From assembly GCA_965205015.1 (NCBI GenBank), contig OZ242029.1, positions 2,112,001 to 2,176,000 on the forward strand: a DNA stretch of 64,000 nt. The letters are read 5' to 3'. Positions 25,225 through 47,108 of the stretch are shown piece by piece; the first letter of the stretch is position 1, and the number at the start of each line of letters is the position of its first letter. The notes under the pieces are model-generated. The model worked only from the letters and a program-made list of their open reading frames with translations, was not told where the DNA came from and did no database searches. Source of the stretch: Candidatus Poribacteria bacterium (GTDB lineage Bacteria; Poribacteria; WGA-4E; WGA-3G). Both the position numbers and the translations under genes were made by a program.

Positions 25225-26340
25225 ATGAAGCGTCTGAATCTCCGTATGTATGCGATGGTGCTTGCCCTCGTCTGTGTTTGGGTGATTTTCACACTCCTGA
25301 CCGGCGGCACCTTCCTCAGCACTCGGAACCTGTCCAACCTTTCTCGCCAAGCCGCGGTCACCGCCATCCTTGCCGTTGGCATGACCTTGGTCATCGTTTC
25401 TGCGAATATTGATCTCTCTGTCGGCTACGGTGCCGGATTGCTCGGTGCCATTGCAGCGATTGTACACGTCTGGTGGGGACAACCGATCCTCGTGACGCTC
25501 ATCGCTGTCTTAGGTATCGGGATTCTGATGGGGGTGATGCAAGGTTACCTTGTGGCGTATCAGCGAATCCCAGCGTTTATCGTCACATTAGGTGGATTTT
25601 TGGCATATCGCGGCTTGATGTTAGCGTTTACCAAAGGTGAGACCATCCTACTCCCAGACAATTGGCTCAAAGCCATCGGGAACGCCTATCTCTCGTCAGC
25701 ACTCGGATGGGGACTCATGGCCGTTGGATTAGGGGTCAACGGCTACCGCTTTTACCGGCAGCGAACCGCCCAGCGCCAATACAGTCCTGAGCAAACATCC
25801 TTGCGAACTTTCCTATTGAAGGTCATTGGAACATCTGCACTCATTGTAGTGTTCATCTCCGTGATGAATGCTCACAAAGGAATTCCCTTTCCAGTTTGCA
25901 TTCTATTTGGATTAGCGTTCATATTCCATTTTATCGCGAACCATACCCGTTTCGGGCGTTATGTGTATGCAGTCGGTGGAAACGCCGAAGCGGCGTATCT
26001 CTCCGGGATCAACGTCCGCGGGATTACGCTACGGGTGTTTGCAACCATGGGAGCGTTAATGGCGATCGCTGGCGTTGTTATGACGGCACGGGTCGGGAGT
26101 GCCAGTCCAGAAGCCGGACGCCTGTTGGAATTAGATGCCATTGCTGCGTGTGTTATCGGCGGTGCCAGTTTAATGGGCGGACGCGGGAGCATCTTCGGGG
26201 CAATTTTAGGCGCGTTCGTCATGGAAAGCCTCAACAACGGAATGAGCATGGCGAACATGGATGCCTCGTGGCAAGACATAATCAAAGGGATTGTGCTCGT
26301 CGCTGCCGTCGGATTTGATATGGCATCCCGGCGGCGATGA
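25225..26340 (+). CDS. Monosaccharide ABC transporter permease (XylH/GguB-like)
   Basis: GMTLVIVSANIDLSVG, IPAFIVTLG, GRYVYAVGGN, ELDAIAACVIGG. Confidence 0.92.
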   Translation: MKRLNLRMYAMVLALVCVWVIFTLLTGGTFLSTRNLSNLSRQAAVTAILAVGMTLVIVSANIDLSVGYGAGLLGAIAAIVHVWWGQPILVTLIAVLGIGILMGVMQGYLVAYQRIPAFIVTLGGFLAYRGLMLAFTKGETILLPDNWLKAIGNAYLSSALGWGLMAVGLGVNGYRFYRQRTAQRQYSPEQTSLRTFLLKVIGTSALIVVFISVMNAHKGIPFPVCILFGLAFIFHFIANHTRFGRYVYAVGGNAEAAYLSGINVRGITLRVFATMGALMAIAGVVMTARVGSASPEAGRLLELDAIAACVIGGASLMGGRGSIFGAILGAFVMESLNNGMSMANMDASWQDIIKGIVLVAAVGFDMASRRR

Positions 26341-26464
26341 CAGTTTTCCTGCCACAAGCATCGTCCACGAAATTTCGCTATTCACAAAAAATTTAAACCT
26401 TTTTCCCAAAAAATCCCCTCTTTAAATCAAATCTAATTGGGCAAATCTTACTGGGAATTTATCC

Positions 26465-29400
26465 ATGCGATACGATTCATCAACCTACACAGACCTGACA
26501 GATGAAGAACTCATTCAGCTTGTGCGAGATGGGGATGAGGCGGCGTTTGCCCAACTCGCAGCCCGGCACAGCTCCAGAATTTGGCAGCTGGTGGTTTTAA
26601 ACTCCCGTCAGATCCGCGATGCTGAAGAAATTTTTCAAGATATCTGGGTAGCCGTCTGGGAAAACATCGGCGGCTTACGCGAGGTCAGCAGTTTCGGTGC
26701 TTGGCTCAGGAAGATAGCTTACACCACCTGTAGGAGATATTACACCACCAACTCGCACACAAGGGGTGAAATCCTTCAAAGTGCTGAACAACTCGCTGAA
26801 ACCATCGATCGGGATGTGCTTGCCCGTTTTCGTGAAACCGAACTTCGATCGGCTGTAACAGAAGCCGTACATGACCTTCCAGAGAAGGTGCGCACTGTCG
26901 CAGTGCTGTACTACTTAGAGATGTGGACGATCAAAGAGATTGCAACCGAGCTGGGTTTGGCGGTTGGCACCGTCAAGACAAGACTCAGCCAAATTCGAGC
27001 ACTTCTGCGCGAGGAATTTGGCGTTGAAGAAATTAAGAGGGGAAGAACTATGGCGCATCAAAAAGAGGTATCCAGACCGTCACGGGACAAAACTAAGGTC
27101 TTCGGTGTCGGCAACGCAGGTGGCAACGTTGTCAAACAAATGATTGGATCCGGTTTAAAGGGCATTGAATTTTACGCTGTGAACACAGATTTAGCAGCAC
27201 TCCGCACGTGCGATGGGGCAACACAGGTACAAATCGGTGCTGAAACTACCCAAGGACTCAGTGGGGATGCAAACCCTGAAATCGGCAGGAGAGCCGCTGA
27301 AGAGGACCTGGAAACGCTCAACGCCGCCGTTGCAGACGCTCGTATGGTTTTTGTTACAGCGGGCATGGGGGGTGGAACGGGAACAGGTGCCGCTCCGTTA
27401 ATCGCATCCATCGCTCGAGAGCAGGGCATTTTAACGATAGGTGTTGCGACACTCCCACTTGATGCCGAGGGGCAACGCCGCGCTGAACACGCAGAACTGG
27501 GACTCCATGAACTCCGAGAAAGCACCGATGCCGTTATCGTGATCCCGAATCAGCGGCTTCTTGATACTGTGGATACAGAACCCGCGGCGAGCGACGTGTT
27601 CCGGATGAGCGATGAAACCGCGTTACTCGGCATTAAAAGCATCTCTGATATTATTATGGAGTCCGGCGAGATTACCATTGATTTCACCGATATAGAGGGT
27701 ATCATGAAGGATGCTGGCACGGTGTTGATGGGCATAGGGCAAGCATCCGGTGAAAACAGAGCGCGAGTCGCCATGGAAAACGCTATCGCCTCACCACTGC
27801 TGGACGGGAACAACATCGGGAGCGCAACTGGGCTGATTGTTAATATTAGTGCCACACCAGACTTTATAATGAATGAATTGGATACGGCGATGCGCGTTCT
27901 CCAAGACACAGCATTTGACGCACAGATTATCTTTGGACTCGTCTATAGAGACGACGATCCTGAACCTGCAGGCACGGTTTATGTCACTATCCTCGCCGCG
28001 GGAATTGAGGCACAAAGCGGACCTGCTGTCGCACCCTCCACCCAGCAGCGGGGGAGCTCTCCCGGAGGCGGCGCTCGCGTCTCGTCTACAACCACGTCCG
28101 AATTTGTTCATCTGCACAACCATAGCGAGTATAGCATGCTCGATGGTGCCTGCCGTATTCCAGATATGGTGGACTGGGCAGTTGAGAATAGTGTTCCTGC
28201 TGTCGCACTCACCGACCACGGAAACATGTTCGGCGCATGGGAACTATACAGCAAGGCAACAGAGGCAGGAGTCAACCCAATCATCGGTTGTGAGGTATAT
28301 ATCGCACAGGGGGGTCGACAGACGCGTGGGCAGGAGCAGGAAGATCCTTATCACCTCACGCTGCTCGCCGAAGATGCAACCGGTTACCGAAATCTCTTGG
28401 AATTGGTATCCCTTGGATACACAGAGGGCTTCAATCGCAAACCGCGCATCGACATGGAAATCTTACGTGAACACCGAGACGGGATTATCGCCCTAACGGG
28501 ATGTATCCAAGGACAGGTGCCACAGCTCCTGTGTGCAAATCGGCGCGACGAAGCGGTTCAGAGCTTCAAAACGTTGATGGAGATAATGGGGAATCAGAAC
28601 CTCTATGTTGAGCTGCAAAACCACTACATCGACCAGGAGCTCAAAGCGTATCCGGTGATGGTGCAGCTGGCAAACGAGTTCAATCTTCCGATCGTCGGCA
28701 CAAACGATTGCCACTACCTTCGCAAATCAGATCACGGGATGCACGACGTCCTCCTCTGTATCCAAGCGAAGAAGACTATCAACGATCAAGAGCGGCTCCG
28801 CTATGATAACCACTTCTACTTCAAAAGCGTTGATGAGATGCGAGAGGCACTGAAGGATTACCCGCCGGAGGCTATCAGTAACACGCTTGAAATTGCGAAT
28901 CGGTGCAACCTCGAACTCGACTATCAACAGGATCCGATGCCGAAATACGGGGTCCCCGAAGGACATACACACGATAGTTATCTGAAGGAATTGTGCTACC
29001 AAGGGTTACGTGAAAAATATGGTGAACTCTCCGAACCCATCCAACAACGGATCGATTACGAACTGGATGTCATTAGACAAGGAAACCATGCCAACTATTT
29101 TCTGATTGTGGCAGATTATGTCAACTACGCCCACAAACAAGGCTACCCGCTTTCCGCCCGCGGTTCTGCCGCCGGCAGTCTGGTGCTATACGCACTCGAT
29201 GTGATTGGTTTCAATCCGATGGATCACGGTTGTCTGTTTGAACGATTTTTAAACCGTGAACGTCTCAGTACTCCGGATATTGATATAGATTTCGCCGACC
29301 GCGCACGTGAACATGTAATTGCGTATCTCGCGAGGAAATACGGCGCGGATTCCGTCAGTAAAGTCGCTACCTTTGCGACATTGGGTGCGAAAGCCGCTAT

Positions 29401-30556
29401 CAAAGATGTCGGTCGCGCGCTTGACGTGTCTCTCGAAACTGTCGAAAAGTTGACAGGGCTCATTCCGAGTATTCCGTATATCACGCTTGATGAAGCCTTG
29501 GAACAGGTTCCCGAATTTCAGGCACTCGCTGAACTCCCCGAAAATACGGAGTTGATTGAGCTTAGTAAAGCAGTTGAAGGTATGAAACGACACGTTTCCA
29601 CTCACACCTCTGCAATTGTCGTTTCGGACGGTCCGTTGACGAATTACGTACCACTGTTCAAGGATAGACATGACCAAATCGCGACACAGTTTGAAGGGGA
29701 AACCGTCGAAGATGTCGGTATCGTCAAATTTGATTCCCTCGGCTTACGGAGTCTCACTGAAACGCACGATTGTCTTCAGATGATTGAAGCGAATCGCGGC
29801 GTCAAAATTAAACTGGAAGATATCCCTTTTGGCGATAAGGAAACCTATTCGCTGGTTAGCAAGGGACTCATCGCTGGTTTATTCCAGTTAGCAGCTTCCC
29901 CCGGCATGTATCGGGTTGTCACTGAGCTTAAACCTGACAACTTTGAGGAATTCTGCGCGATTATTGCCCTCTATCGACCAGGTCCTATAGAAAATGGGGA
30001 TATGCAGTGCTACATGGACCGCAAGAATGGGCGGCAGCCCGTGGAATATATACACCCCTCACTTGAGAGCACACTCAAAAGCACTTACGGTGTATGCCTC
30101 TATCAGGAGCAGGTGATGCAGATTGCTCACGATATGGCAGGCTTTACGCTCGCTGAAGCGGACATACTCCGCCACGCGATCGGCAGAAAAATGGATGGGA
30201 AAAATGAGGCGTTACTTACGGCACAGCGTGAGAAATTCGTTGAGGGCGCAATAGAAAAGGGTTTTGATAAAGAAGAGGCTGAAAGGGTATTCGAGTCGCT
30301 TGAACCTTCTGCACGTTATGCCTTTAACAAGGCGCATGCCGTCGCCTACTCAATGTTAGCGTATCGCATGGCTTATCTCAAAACGCACTATCCGCACGAA
30401 TTTATGGCGACAATGATGATGGGTGAGGCAGACGATTCAGCAAAAATTGCCTACTACCGAGAGGAGTGTGAAGAGCTCTCTAACTTCTTAGGTGTAAGGA
30501 TCGATCCGCTTCCGCTTGCCGCGCAATCCCACGACGCCGCTGGCGAGGTTTCCTAA
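26465..30556 (+). CDS. Fusion protein: ECF sigma-70 factor plus FtsZ GTPase core plus DNA polymerase III alpha (PHP and polymerase core, C-terminally truncated)
   Basis: aa ~1-190: sigma regions 2 and 4 (DAEEIFQD, FGAWLRKIA, GTVKTRL). aa ~208-515: FtsZ (GVGNAGGN, AVNTD, GMGGGTGTG). aa ~547-1345: DnaE (FVHLHNHSEYSMLDG, TDHG, TNDCHY, RGSAAGS, PDIDIDF, KFDSLGL, LYRPGP, YQEQVM, FNKAHA). Confidence 0.93.
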   Translation: MRYDSSTYTDLTDEELIQLVRDGDEAAFAQLAARHSSRIWQLVVLNSRQIRDAEEIFQDIWVAVWENIGGLREVSSFGAWLRKIAYTTCRRYYTTNSHTRGEILQSAEQLAETIDRDVLARFRETELRSAVTEAVHDLPEKVRTVAVLYYLEMWTIKEIATELGLAVGTVKTRLSQIRALLREEFGVEEIKRGRTMAHQKEVSRPSRDKTKVFGVGNAGGNVVKQMIGSGLKGIEFYAVNTDLAALRTCDGATQVQIGAETTQGLSGDANPEIGRRAAEEDLETLNAAVADARMVFVTAGMGGGTGTGAAPLIASIAREQGILTIGVATLPLDAEGQRRAEHAELGLHELRESTDAVIVIPNQRLLDTVDTEPAASDVFRMSDETALLGIKSISDIIMESGEITIDFTDIEGIMKDAGTVLMGIGQASGENRARVAMENAIASPLLDGNNIGSATGLIVNISATPDFIMNELDTAMRVLQDTAFDAQIIFGLVYRDDDPEPAGTVYVTILAAGIEAQSGPAVAPSTQQRGSSPGGGARVSSTTTSEFVHLHNHSEYSMLDGACRIPDMVDWAVENSVPAVALTDHGNMFGAWELYSKATEAGVNPIIGCEVYIAQGGRQTRGQEQEDPYHLTLLAEDATGYRNLLELVSLGYTEGFNRKPRIDMEILREHRDGIIALTGCIQGQVPQLLCANRRDEAVQSFKTLMEIMGNQNLYVELQNHYIDQELKAYPVMVQLANEFNLPIVGTNDCHYLRKSDHGMHDVLLCIQAKKTINDQERLRYDNHFYFKSVDEMREALKDYPPEAISNTLEIANRCNLELDYQQDPMPKYGVPEGHTHDSYLKELCYQGLREKYGELSEPIQQRIDYELDVIRQGNHANYFLIVADYVNYAHKQGYPLSARGSAAGSLVLYALDVIGFNPMDHGCLFERFLNRERLSTPDIDIDFADRAREHVIAYLARKYGADSVSKVATFATLGAKAAIKDVGRALDVSLETVEKLTGLIPSIPYITLDEALEQVPEFQALAELPENTELIELSKAVEGMKRHVSTHTSAIVVSDGPLTNYVPLFKDRHDQIATQFEGETVEDVGIVKFDSLGLRSLTETHDCLQMIEANRGVKIKLEDIPFGDKETYSLVSKGLIAGLFQLAASPGMYRVVTELKPDNFEEFCAIIALYRPGPIENGDMQCYMDRKNGRQPVEYIHPSLESTLKSTYGVCLYQEQVMQIAHDMAGFTLAEADILRHAIGRKMDGKNEALLTAQREKFVEGAIEKGFDKEEAERVFESLEPSARYAFNKAHAVAYSMLAYRMAYLKTHYPHEFMATMMMGEADDSAKIAYYREECEELSNFLGVRIDPLPLAAQSHDAAGEVS

Positions 30557-46423: not shown

Positions 46424-46495
46424 GCTGACGTGGCTCAATGGTAGAGCAAGTGATTTGTAATCACTAGGTTGGAGGTTCGATTCCTCTCGTCAGCT
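46424..46495 (+). tRNA. tRNA-Thr(TGT)
   Basis: GCTGACG/CGTCAGC acceptor, AGTGA-TTTGTAA-TCACT anticodon arm. Confidence 0.95.
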
Positions 46496-46503
46496 TTTTT
46501 AAT

Positions 46504-46585
46504 GGGGGTATGCTAGAGCGGTCAAATAGGGCAGACTGTAAATCTGTTGGCTATGCCTACGGTGGTTCGAATCCATCTGCCCCCA
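46504..46585 (+). tRNA. tRNA-Tyr(GTA)
   Basis: GGGGGTA/TGCCCCC acceptor, GCAGA-CTGTAAA-TCTGT, long variable arm. Confidence 0.95.
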
Positions 46586-46604
46586 TCTCTTTTTATTAGA
46601 TGCT

Positions 46605-46677
46605 GCGGGAGTAGCTCAGCTGGTAGAGCATTGGCCTTCCAAGCCATGTGTCGCGGGTTCGATTCCCGTCTCCCGCT
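46605..46677 (+). tRNA. tRNA-Gly(TCC)
   Basis: GCGGGAG/CTCCCGC acceptor, TGGC-CTTCCAA-GCCA. Confidence 0.95.
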
Positions 46678-46697
46678 TGTCGGTGTTTATTATCTTT

Positions 46698-46773
<76 letters not shown>

Positions 46774-46797
46774 CTTATCGAAAGTAGAGGGTTTATT

Positions 46798-46950
46798 ATG
46801 CCCAGAGACATTGTAGTATTAGCATGTGATGCATGTAGTCAACGGAATTATGTGACAACCCGAAACCGCCGGACGAACCAAAACCGGTACGAACGGAAAA
46901 AATACTGTCGCTTCTGTCGAAAGCATACATCCCACAAGGAAACACGATAA
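46798..46950 (+). CDS. rpmG: 50S ribosomal protein L33 (Zn-binding type)
   Basis: [16 protein letters not shown]...[17 protein letters not shown]. Confidence 0.95.
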
Positions 46951-47020
46951 CTTTTTGGATAGGGACGATAACACCACTCTGATTATCGAATGGGTGCGTG
47001 ATCTCCTACGAAAAACTTGC

Positions 47021-47094
47021 AGGCCAGTAGCTCCAACGGCTAGAGCGTCGGTCTCCAAAACCGAATGTTGGGGGTTCGAATCCCTCCTGGCCTG
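47021..47094 (+). tRNA. tRNA-Trp(CCA)
   Basis: AGGCCAG/CTGGCCT acceptor, TCGGT-CTCCAAA-ACCGA; canonical position before secE. Confidence 0.95.
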
Positions 47095-47108
47095 CCTTTA
47101 ATAATCTT

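Follow-up and report, generated by a model that had tools for sequence, protein, structure and literature searches.

An ECF sigma factor fused to paralogues of FtsZ and the DNA polymerase III alpha core in Candidatus Poribacteria

Why would a bacterium join a transcription initiation factor to copies of its cell division and DNA replication proteins? The question is raised by a 64,000-nucleotide stretch of Candidatus Poribacteria DNA (contig OZ242029.1; hereafter the window), in which positions 26465..30556 of the plus strand form a single stop-free open reading frame (ORF) of 1363 codons plus a stop codon. An earlier note on this DNA, made from its letters, had read the ORF as an extracytoplasmic function (ECF) sigma factor followed by an FtsZ core and by DnaE, the alpha subunit of DNA polymerase III. 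Pfam and NCBIfam searches agree with this reading of the domains, and the motif positions given in the note are exact. We find that the fusion is very likely a genuine, vertically inherited Poribacteria gene encoding a one-component ECF sigma factor that is regulated by its fused C-terminal extension. The ORF is laid out as follows.

26465..30556, plus strand: whole ORF, sigma-FtsZ-DnaE core fusion (ORF calling, Pfam, NCBIfam, cluster search)
26564..27013, plus strand: ECF sigma core, with region 2 at amino acids 34-97 and region 4 at 130-183 (Pfam, NCBIfam)
27086..28009, plus strand: FtsZ paralogue core, amino acids 208-515 (Pfam, NCBIfam, alignment)
28010..28099, plus strand: Ser/Gly/Pro-rich linker, amino acids 516-545, predicted disordered (AlphaFold2 confidence, alignment)
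28100..30499, plus strand: DnaE paralogue core, amino acids 546-1345, with PHP at 549-720, palm/NTPase at 838-1093 and fingers at 1097-1266 (Pfam, NCBIfam)

The N-terminal part of the protein matches the Pfam families Sigma70_r2 (amino acids 34-97, 29.9 bits against a cut-off of 24), Sigma70_r4_2 (130-181, E 4.5e-11, 42.7 bits against 25.7) and Sigma70_ECF (23.3 bits against 21.1), as well as the NCBIfam sigma70-ECF model TIGR02937 (79.1 bits against 42.9). With regions 2 and 4 only and family scores above the curated cut-offs, it is an ECF (group 4) sigma-70 factor; no named NCBIfam equivalog reaches its cut-off for this part, the best being SigM (88.7 against 190). The middle part contains Tubulin (211-369, E 5.5e-40) and FtsZ_C (418-515, E 2.2e-18) domains and passes the ftsZ equivalog TIGR00065 (314.6 bits against 295.2, amino acids 199-526). 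PHP (549-720, E 5.8e-55), DNA_pol3_alpha (838-1093, E 9.1e-83) and DNA_pol3_finger (1097-1266, E 4.9e-51) domains make up the remainder, which matches the DnaE model TIGR00594 at 938.9 bits against a cut-off of 434. Diagnostic motifs fall at 300-308 (GMGGGTGTG), 547-553 (FVHLHNH), 937-943 (PDIDIDF, with D938 and D940) and D1090 (KFD). The polymerase aspartates are retained, as the note had claimed, with PDIDIDF and KFD aligning with the matching motifs of Thermus aquaticus Pol III alpha (2hpi).

An AlphaFold2 model of amino acids 1-545, built from 34 aligned sequences, contains sigma2 and sigma4 as two helical domains and an FtsZ fold (predicted template modelling score 0.57). Per-residue confidence (pLDDT) is 85-94 in the FtsZ part and ~29 at 517-545, and residues 186-205 and 517-545 are predicted to be disordered. 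The modelled protein looks like beads on a string.

Whether the ORF is an assembly artefact, or the recent non-functional chimera that the earlier note had listed among its options, can be judged from independent data. A 3990-base contig from run X1, which belongs to a study other than that of the possible source run, spans 26300-29237 and covers both domain junctions with 0 differences, and contigs from run X3 bridge each of the two. An RNA run, X20, contains contigs of relatives only, one of which (381 bases, ~86% alike) lies across the sigma/FtsZ junction; coming from a relative, it is no proof that the window's gene is transcribed. When a 5.8-billion-protein collection was searched, sigma, FtsZ and DnaE domains were found jointly in 115 of the best 120 clusters listed, at 55-95% identity to the window. 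Several homologous clusters are encoded on contigs of 4-6.7 Mb, and their source names point to Candidatus Poribacteria.

We recovered 75 loci in one-genome-per-species data. An ORF of at least 1300 amino acids that spans sigma and FtsZ is present in 56 of 175 Poribacteria species genomes; among the same 175, matches spanning sigma and FtsZ (E<=1e-130) occur in 96 genomes and a match at the level of canonical FtsZ only in 64. Synteny extends to the upstream genes for a racemase, TatD and an ABC permease, which 44-50 of 55 loci share, those of the most distant clade included. Conservation is highest in the sigma core, at 85-94% identity within the main clade, and all parts of the fusion are under purifying selection: in 13 close pairs the ratio of nonsynonymous to synonymous substitution rates (dN/dS) is 0-0.14 for sigma, 0.16-0.32 for the FtsZ part, 0.05-0.28 for the linker and 0.08-0.16 for the fused DnaE. 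The N-terminus of canonical DnaE gives 0.03-0.07 in five of the six valid pairs (out of ten) and 0.23 in the remaining one.

We consider an artefact or recent chimera to be excluded because the fusion is present in independent assemblies, multi-megabase chromosome-level ones among them, and in at least 56 species genomes, because its synteny is kept and its parts are constrained (dN/dS 0.08-0.32 over the FtsZ and DnaE parts), and because separate canonical genes exist, as described below. The window comes from a metagenome-type record; nothing was found in favour of an artefact, and the chance of one appears negligible.

The gene lies outside a division and cell wall (dcw) or replication context, in line with the earlier note. 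Its neighbours encode an ABC permease (upstream), TatD, a convergent solute-binding protein (downstream) and an M23 peptidase. With 1170 amino acids of extension following the sigma core and no anti-sigma gene in the operon or neighbourhood, the product has the architecture of the extension-regulated ECFs. Farther along the window, positions 46424-47096 contain a tRNA cluster, Thr(tgt)-Tyr-Gly-Thr(ggt) followed by Trp, an arrangement that commonly flanks tuf/secE-nusG in bacteria and that is consistent with an ordinary chromosomal region.

The fused domains exist alongside the housekeeping proteins that they resemble. All five complete relatives encode, besides the fusion, a separate canonical FtsZ that is 426-448 amino acids long and scores higher (390-394 bits) and a separate full-length DnaE of 1180-1189 amino acids. 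Judged from these five genomes, the fused FtsZ is not the division FtsZ. The fused FtsZ is 57-62% identical to canonical Poribacteria FtsZ, and the fused DnaE is 74-78% identical to canonical Poribacteria DnaE, while for FtsZ of other phyla identity is mostly 43-49%. Both fused parts are thus far closer to their canonical Poribacteria counterparts than this, and the duplications therefore took place inside the lineage. A DnaE tree built from 48 fused and 21 canonical sequences separates the two kinds and never pairs them within a genome, a topology compatible with a single origin of the fused DnaE parts. Gene conversion between fused and canonical dnaE was considered and rejected, given the lack of within-genome pairing.

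A comparison of the two sets of paralogues reveals that the same catalytic and nucleotide-binding motifs are present in both, whereas the fused copies have lost the parts used for docking, lie outside dcw and replication contexts and evolve somewhat faster. In the DnaE alignment of 821 columns, 354 show a single residue throughout both paralogue groups and fixed differences between the groups are limited to 3; the 48 fused copies keep PDIDIDF, KFD, YRPGP, QEQVMQIA and YAFNKSH. In the fused FtsZ, the G-box GMGGGTGT is invariant and the second Asp of the T7 loop is found in at least 95% of 54 copies; we take these to be residues of GTP binding and hydrolysis. The canonical C-terminal linker and peptide (...DWEIPAFLR... 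in canonical copies) are missing, and the fused FtsZ core passes through a 30-residue Ser/Gly/Pro linker directly into DnaE. The FtsZ C-terminal peptide binds membrane anchors of the FtsA/ZipA type.

The DnaE part is likewise incomplete. The earlier note was right that the catalytic core is present, but the span is the N-terminal ~70% of the protein only (model positions 1-800 of ~1150), and the fused DnaE misses the NCBIfam cut-offs for full-length equivalogs (973 against 1260 and 959 against 1002). In the window it stops once the fingers are complete, and it has neither the helix-hairpin-helix (HhH) domain nor the clamp-binding motif (which reads QMSLF in the canonical DnaE of Poribacteria), the OB fold or the tau-binding C-terminus. 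A long form of the fusion (~1430 amino acids) adds the HhH domain and stops before QMSLF, the OB fold and the tau-binding end. It is present in both major clades of a sigma+FtsZ tree rooted on a paralogue and is probably ancestral, short and DnaE-less forms having arisen repeatedly. On that tree, locus L023 is scored as lacking DnaE only since its contig ends, and L065 has an internal deletion. The DnaE-less gene L066 ends with a remnant of the DnaE N-terminus, FVHFPNYSEYN.

Two variants of these architectures deserve mention in their own right. The gene L018:9998-15229 (plus strand; 1744 amino acids, identical to P0077) encodes the long form followed by ~340 residues after the HhH domain; no Pfam family matches this addition, and it cannot be aligned to the C-terminus of canonical DnaE. 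P0122 (840 amino acids), P0128 (744) and P0136 (731), which are among the best representatives in a search of 1.8 billion proteins, consist of two complete FtsZ units in a row (Tubulin and FtsZ_C twice) with no sigma domain.

The earlier note had raised the question of whether other ECFs of this lineage are fused to housekeeping proteins, and they are. Members of the window's sigma subfamily are joined to FtsZ-DnaE, FtsZ alone, the FtsZ GTPase domain, DnaN, PurC or WD40 propellers. Sigma-DnaN carries a complete DnaN in 595 amino acids, with a sigma part 75% identical to the window's; such fusions (~575-595 amino acids) form ~37 close clusters (63-97% identity) and at least 30 distant ones (40-44%). 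Among the sigma-DnaN loci and clusters are L127:149-1933 (plus strand, genome G004), L215, L218, P0318-P0348 and P0384-P0436. The gene sits behind the same promoter motif as the window's fusion (see below), and in G004 three MacB-like permease genes and an HlyD gene come after it. By analogy, sigma-DnaN looks like a covalent counterpart of the clamp-activated transcription of phages T4 and Mu.

A second, widespread type, sigma-FtsZ-N (400-430 amino acids, sigma 60-62% identical), carries the N-terminal GTPase domain of FtsZ only and is without the T7 loop and C-terminal domain (L086, L087, L178:130-1347, L179-L198). Sigma-PurC, with a SAICAR synthetase partner (503 amino acids, sigma 79% identical; L073:5795-7303, plus strand), lies directly upstream of, and in tandem with, a sigma-FtsZ gene (L073:7459-9138), the single case seen. 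Sigma-WD40 propeller proteins are ~850-905 amino acids long, and their sigma parts are 53-60% identical to the window's. More generally, genomes G001-G005 contain 20-58 or more ECF-like matches each, and most of the others lie in open frames of ~700-1100 amino acids; one such frame was scanned and has a BNR/sortilin-type propeller extension. Propeller signatures (BNR/sortilin/DUF6242) are found in the extensions of other ECF ORFs, at L132:131-3199 and L210:174-2900.

What might these sigma factors transcribe? A conserved motif upstream of the fusion gene provides a lead.

26391..26429, plus strand: candidate cognate, autoregulated ECF-type promoter (conserved motif, position weight matrix)
26430..26464, plus strand: short leader with a conserved (A)TCTAATTGG-like direct repeat before the start codon (32 aligned upstream regions)

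The promoter consists of a -35-like element, TTTAAACC, at 26392-26399 and a -10-like element, CTCTTTA, at 26418-26424. The arrangement TTTAAACC-N18-CTCTTTA recurs in 29 of 32 aligned upstream regions, ~40-75 nucleotides before the start codon, and is kept even at loci with a different upstream gene. With 49.3 bits, the window's promoter is the sole position weight matrix match of at least 5 bits in the 64 kb. Across the 175 genomes the motif has 197 matches against 6 for a reversed control, a result obtained with the stricter of two patterns (15 bases). The matches lie in 90 genomes, with 1-5 sites per genome; the 67 genomes G006-G072, which have no sigma-spanning matches, contain none. The motif also precedes sibling sigma genes, and the sigma-FtsZ-N genes have a variant, TTTTAAACC-N17-ACTCTTTA, that reaches 5 bits or more at 17 of 20 loci. 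The motif co-occurs with the sigma subfamily, and on this sequence evidence the sigma factor most likely recognises TTTAAACC-N18-CTCTTTA itself, with positive autoregulation.

We looked at 20 motif sites that were chosen by hand for spacer classes other than those of the sigma-FtsZ and sigma-FtsZ-N promoters. ABC permease genes stand behind several of them (six MacB-like and three ABC-2); the other genes found behind the motif encode two secreted WD40 proteins, seven members of the sigma subfamily, one other ECF sigma factor, one TnpB and one AAA ATPase. Division or replication genes were not seen behind the motif among the sites examined. Ahead of MacB-like genes, matrix matches of 28-43 bits occur in 4 of 12 loci (controls <= -17), and 4 of 20 sigma-FtsZ-N genes have a MacB-like gene as their immediate downstream neighbour. 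One orthologous motif site is followed by a TnpB/IS605 OrfB gene in G154 (L211:1745-2857, minus strand) and by an ECF sigma gene in G147 (L210); the TnpB gene is probably an insertion.

The leader between promoter and start codon contains the direct repeat (A)TCTAATTGG ... ATCTAATTGGGAAT, present as a single copy at some loci. The leader matches no Rfam family at E<=1, and the repeat may be an operator or a translation-control element.

A further conserved element lies inside the gene, where the sigma module gives way to its extension.

27035..27052, plus strand: internal Shine-Dalgarno (SD)-like AAGAGGGGAAG followed by an ATG (Met196), at the sigma/extension boundary (conservation across 55 fusion genes)

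All 55 of 55 fusion genes keep the junction ATG, with a purine-rich, GGAGG-like stretch ahead of it, though the encoded residues vary. An SD-like match of at least 4 nucleotides occurs upstream of 52 of 52 junction methionines and of 299 of 1621 other internal methionines, counts that are phylogenetically non-independent. For reference, the SD of canonical dnaE genes is GGAGGAA. The same SD and ATG mark the boundary in the sigma-DnaN, sigma-PurC and sigma-WD40 siblings, and sigma-DnaN keeps DnaN's own SD and ATG besides. Met196 was rejected as a native FtsZ start, since siblings with other partners share it and it belongs to the linker of the sigma module. A second product without sigma, made from the internal start, is plausible. 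This element, like the DnaE truncation, the family of fusions and the common promoter, goes beyond what the earlier note had described.

Taken as a whole, these features lead us to propose, tentatively and at somewhat less than even confidence, that the extension is a target mimic that gates the sigma factor and that ABC exporters are induced as a result. The extension keeps the nucleotide- and ligand-binding cores of FtsZ and DnaE, while the parts that dock to the divisome (the FtsZ C-terminal peptide) and to the replisome (the clamp motif, OB fold and tau domain) are gone, and flexible linkers tether the sigma, FtsZ and DnaE parts to one another. Under this proposal, an attacker of FtsZ or DnaE, such as a natural-product antibiotic, a competitor toxin or a phage protein, would bind the mimic or alter its assembly state, and this event would change the availability of the tethered sigma factor to RNA polymerase. 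The sigma factor would then induce its own gene together with a few ABC exporter genes, of the MacB type with HlyD and of the ABC-2 type. The internal SD and ATG might also yield sigma-free FtsZ-DnaE from this mRNA, which would serve as a further decoy or as a partner in co-assembly.

We lean to a target mimic because the binding cores are kept and docking is lost, because siblings carry DnaN and PurC and because the candidate regulon consists of exporters; a further reason is the published proposal of a decoy role for a DnaE homologue (see below). Several observations weigh against this proposal. The catalytic residues would be kept equally if the domains were still enzymes, and the PurC and WD40 partners fit a drug-target theme poorly. 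On the sigma+FtsZ tree there are at least six changes to the short DnaE form and at least three to none, and the DnaE core, conserved where present, appears dispensable in some close relatives. The AlphaFold2 model of amino acids 1-545 contains no confident packing of sigma against FtsZ and lends no support to an autoinhibitory contact, and the flanks of the gene hold no biosynthetic cluster or defence genes. As for the output, the 20 sampled sites are hand-picked and not random, at 12 of the 20 sigma-FtsZ-N loci no MacB-like gene is found within 6 kb, and a looser 13-base pattern allowing one mismatch is not enriched over its reversed control in five genomes. Another sigma of the subfamily, or an unrelated factor, could also read the motif, and both the signal and the output are read from sequence.

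The main alternative to this proposal is the one that the earlier note had set beside a decoy or sensor, namely a device that couples division and replication to transcription. Here the fused FtsZ would co-polymerise with native FtsZ, and the sibling DnaN would dimerise with native DnaN on DNA, so that sigma is sequestered or delivered to DNA according to the state of division or replication and the regulon follows the cell cycle. The partners FtsZ, DnaE and DnaN all act in replication or division, the GTP site and the T7-loop Asp needed for polymer contacts are still present in the fused FtsZ, and an internal start could provide untagged subunits for mixed assemblies. Sliding clamps are, moreover, known to activate sigma-dependent transcription in phages T4 (PMC2988020, PMC7892883) and Mu (PMC12867686). 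The fused DnaE, however, lacks the clamp motif, OB fold and tau domain, making the known replisome contacts impossible, and the fused FtsZ lacks the membrane-anchor peptide. The PurC and WD40 partners do not fit, nor do the promoter data: the non-sigma targets seen for the motif are ABC exporters and secreted WD40 proteins, and genes for division or replication are not among them. The evidence leans to a decoy or sensor, and we regard cell-cycle coupling as rather unlikely.

Two further alternatives concern what the extension does once made. Translation might begin mainly at the internal SD and ATG and produce an FtsZ-DnaE protein with an independent role (an alternative division or repair module, for example), in which case the sigma fusion would be a tolerated by-product of a stop codon lost from an ancestral sigma-partner operon. 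The occurrence of an SD-like stretch and ATG in 55 of 55 genes and in all partner types speaks for such a pair of proteins, as do the linkers that AlphaFold2 predicts to be disordered and the database entries P0096, P0099 and P0101, which begin at FtsZ and have no sigma domains. Yet the frame at the junction is open in all 55 species-level genes and in the DnaN, PurC and WD40 siblings, across 45-50% protein divergence, and a neutral fusion is not expected to stay open over that distance. We saw no stop-separated form at the junction, the sole split (L041) lying inside the FtsZ part, and a truncated DnaE and a peptide-less FtsZ would be poorly equipped for independent work in the replisome or divisome; we consider two separate proteins quite improbable. 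Less probable still is a polymerase tethered to RNA polymerase, in which sigma would bring the DnaE core to promoters for transcript-primed synthesis or local mutagenesis. The Asp triad and nucleotide-binding motifs are conserved at a dN/dS of ~0.1 and the probably ancestral long form keeps the DNA-binding HhH domain, but DnaE has been lost several times while sigma-FtsZ persists, siblings have DnaN, PurC or WD40 in its place, promoter sites are very few (1-5 per genome) and no repeat or target structures were seen nearby.

How does a target-mimic sigma factor compare with systems already described? In the 2021 reclassification (PMC7826278), fused extensions rank second among the ways in which ECFs are regulated and are present in 19 groups. 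Like ECF41, ECF42, ECF238 and other extension-type families (PMC3426412), the fusion has a sigma2 and sigma4 core followed by an extension, no adjoining anti-sigma gene, an extension type that tracks the sigma phylogeny and a likely autoregulation. Among the extensions named in PMC7826278 are SnoaL-like, tetratricopeptide, Cys-rich, DUF1835 and transmembrane types, whereas that of the window's gene comprises 1170 amino acids from paralogues of two essential housekeeping proteins, with no confident contact to the sigma core in the model. FtsZ, tubulin, polymerase III, WD40 and Poribacteria are never mentioned in the main text of the reclassification. Searches aimed at sigma-FtsZ-DnaE or sigma-DnaN fusions, over the main articles of 8.1 million open papers and 0.36 million preprints, and a check of key ECF classification papers yielded no description of them, and the fusion of a sigma factor to FtsZ and DnaE paralogues appears to be an undescribed architecture.

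Links between a specificity factor and the replisome are known from phages. The T4 late system (the sigma-like gp55, the co-activator gp33 and the clamp gp45) and Mu MuC with the beta clamp tie transcription to replication (PMC2988020, PMC7892883, PMC12867686). These systems are non-covalent, phage-encoded and clamp-using, whereas the fusion is cellular and chromosomal and combines FtsZ with a DnaE that has no clamp motif. A second DnaE-like protein beside the essential one is shared with NarR/NgnU, a DnaE homologue encoded beside the nargenicin cluster for which a decoy role is proposed in passages of PMC8922275; the same source notes that griselimycin binds DnaN. NarR/NgnU is stand-alone and next to a biosynthetic cluster, in contrast to the truncated and fused DnaE described here, which has no biosynthetic genes nearby. 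The fusion also has a functional analogy, and only that, with the integrated decoys of plants, from which it differs in kingdom, protein families and output. In plant NLR integrated decoys, a copy of the attacker's target is built into the sensor, and attack triggers the response.

Fused-sensor ECFs are known, and none that we found in print uses the cell's own division or replication proteins as the sensor. One practical consequence is that the database labels 'cell division protein FtsZ' and 'DNA polymerase III subunit alpha' need correction for these proteins, as they could mislead reconstructions of the metabolism and cell biology of Poribacteria. If the extension gates the sigma factor, the fusion would represent a new signalling principle, in which a mimic attached to RNA polymerase reads the condition of an essential machine or detects that this machine is under attack. 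Such proteins could then serve as genetically encoded reporters for compounds that bind FtsZ, DnaE or DnaN.

It is possible, though doubtful, that Poribacteria make wider use of this principle and maintain surveillance by sigma factors with integrated targets (copies of FtsZ, DnaE, DnaN and perhaps PurC, essential proteins that are frequent targets of antibiotics, competitor toxins and phages), which would induce exporters and more decoy. Surveillance of this kind would provide a natural set of biosensors for inhibitors of division and replication and, acting at the level of transcription, would give bacteria an equivalent of the integrated decoys found in plant immunity. Poribacteria are a sponge-associated lineage, and these fusions, if they act in this way, would offer clues to chemical warfare in sponge microbiomes.

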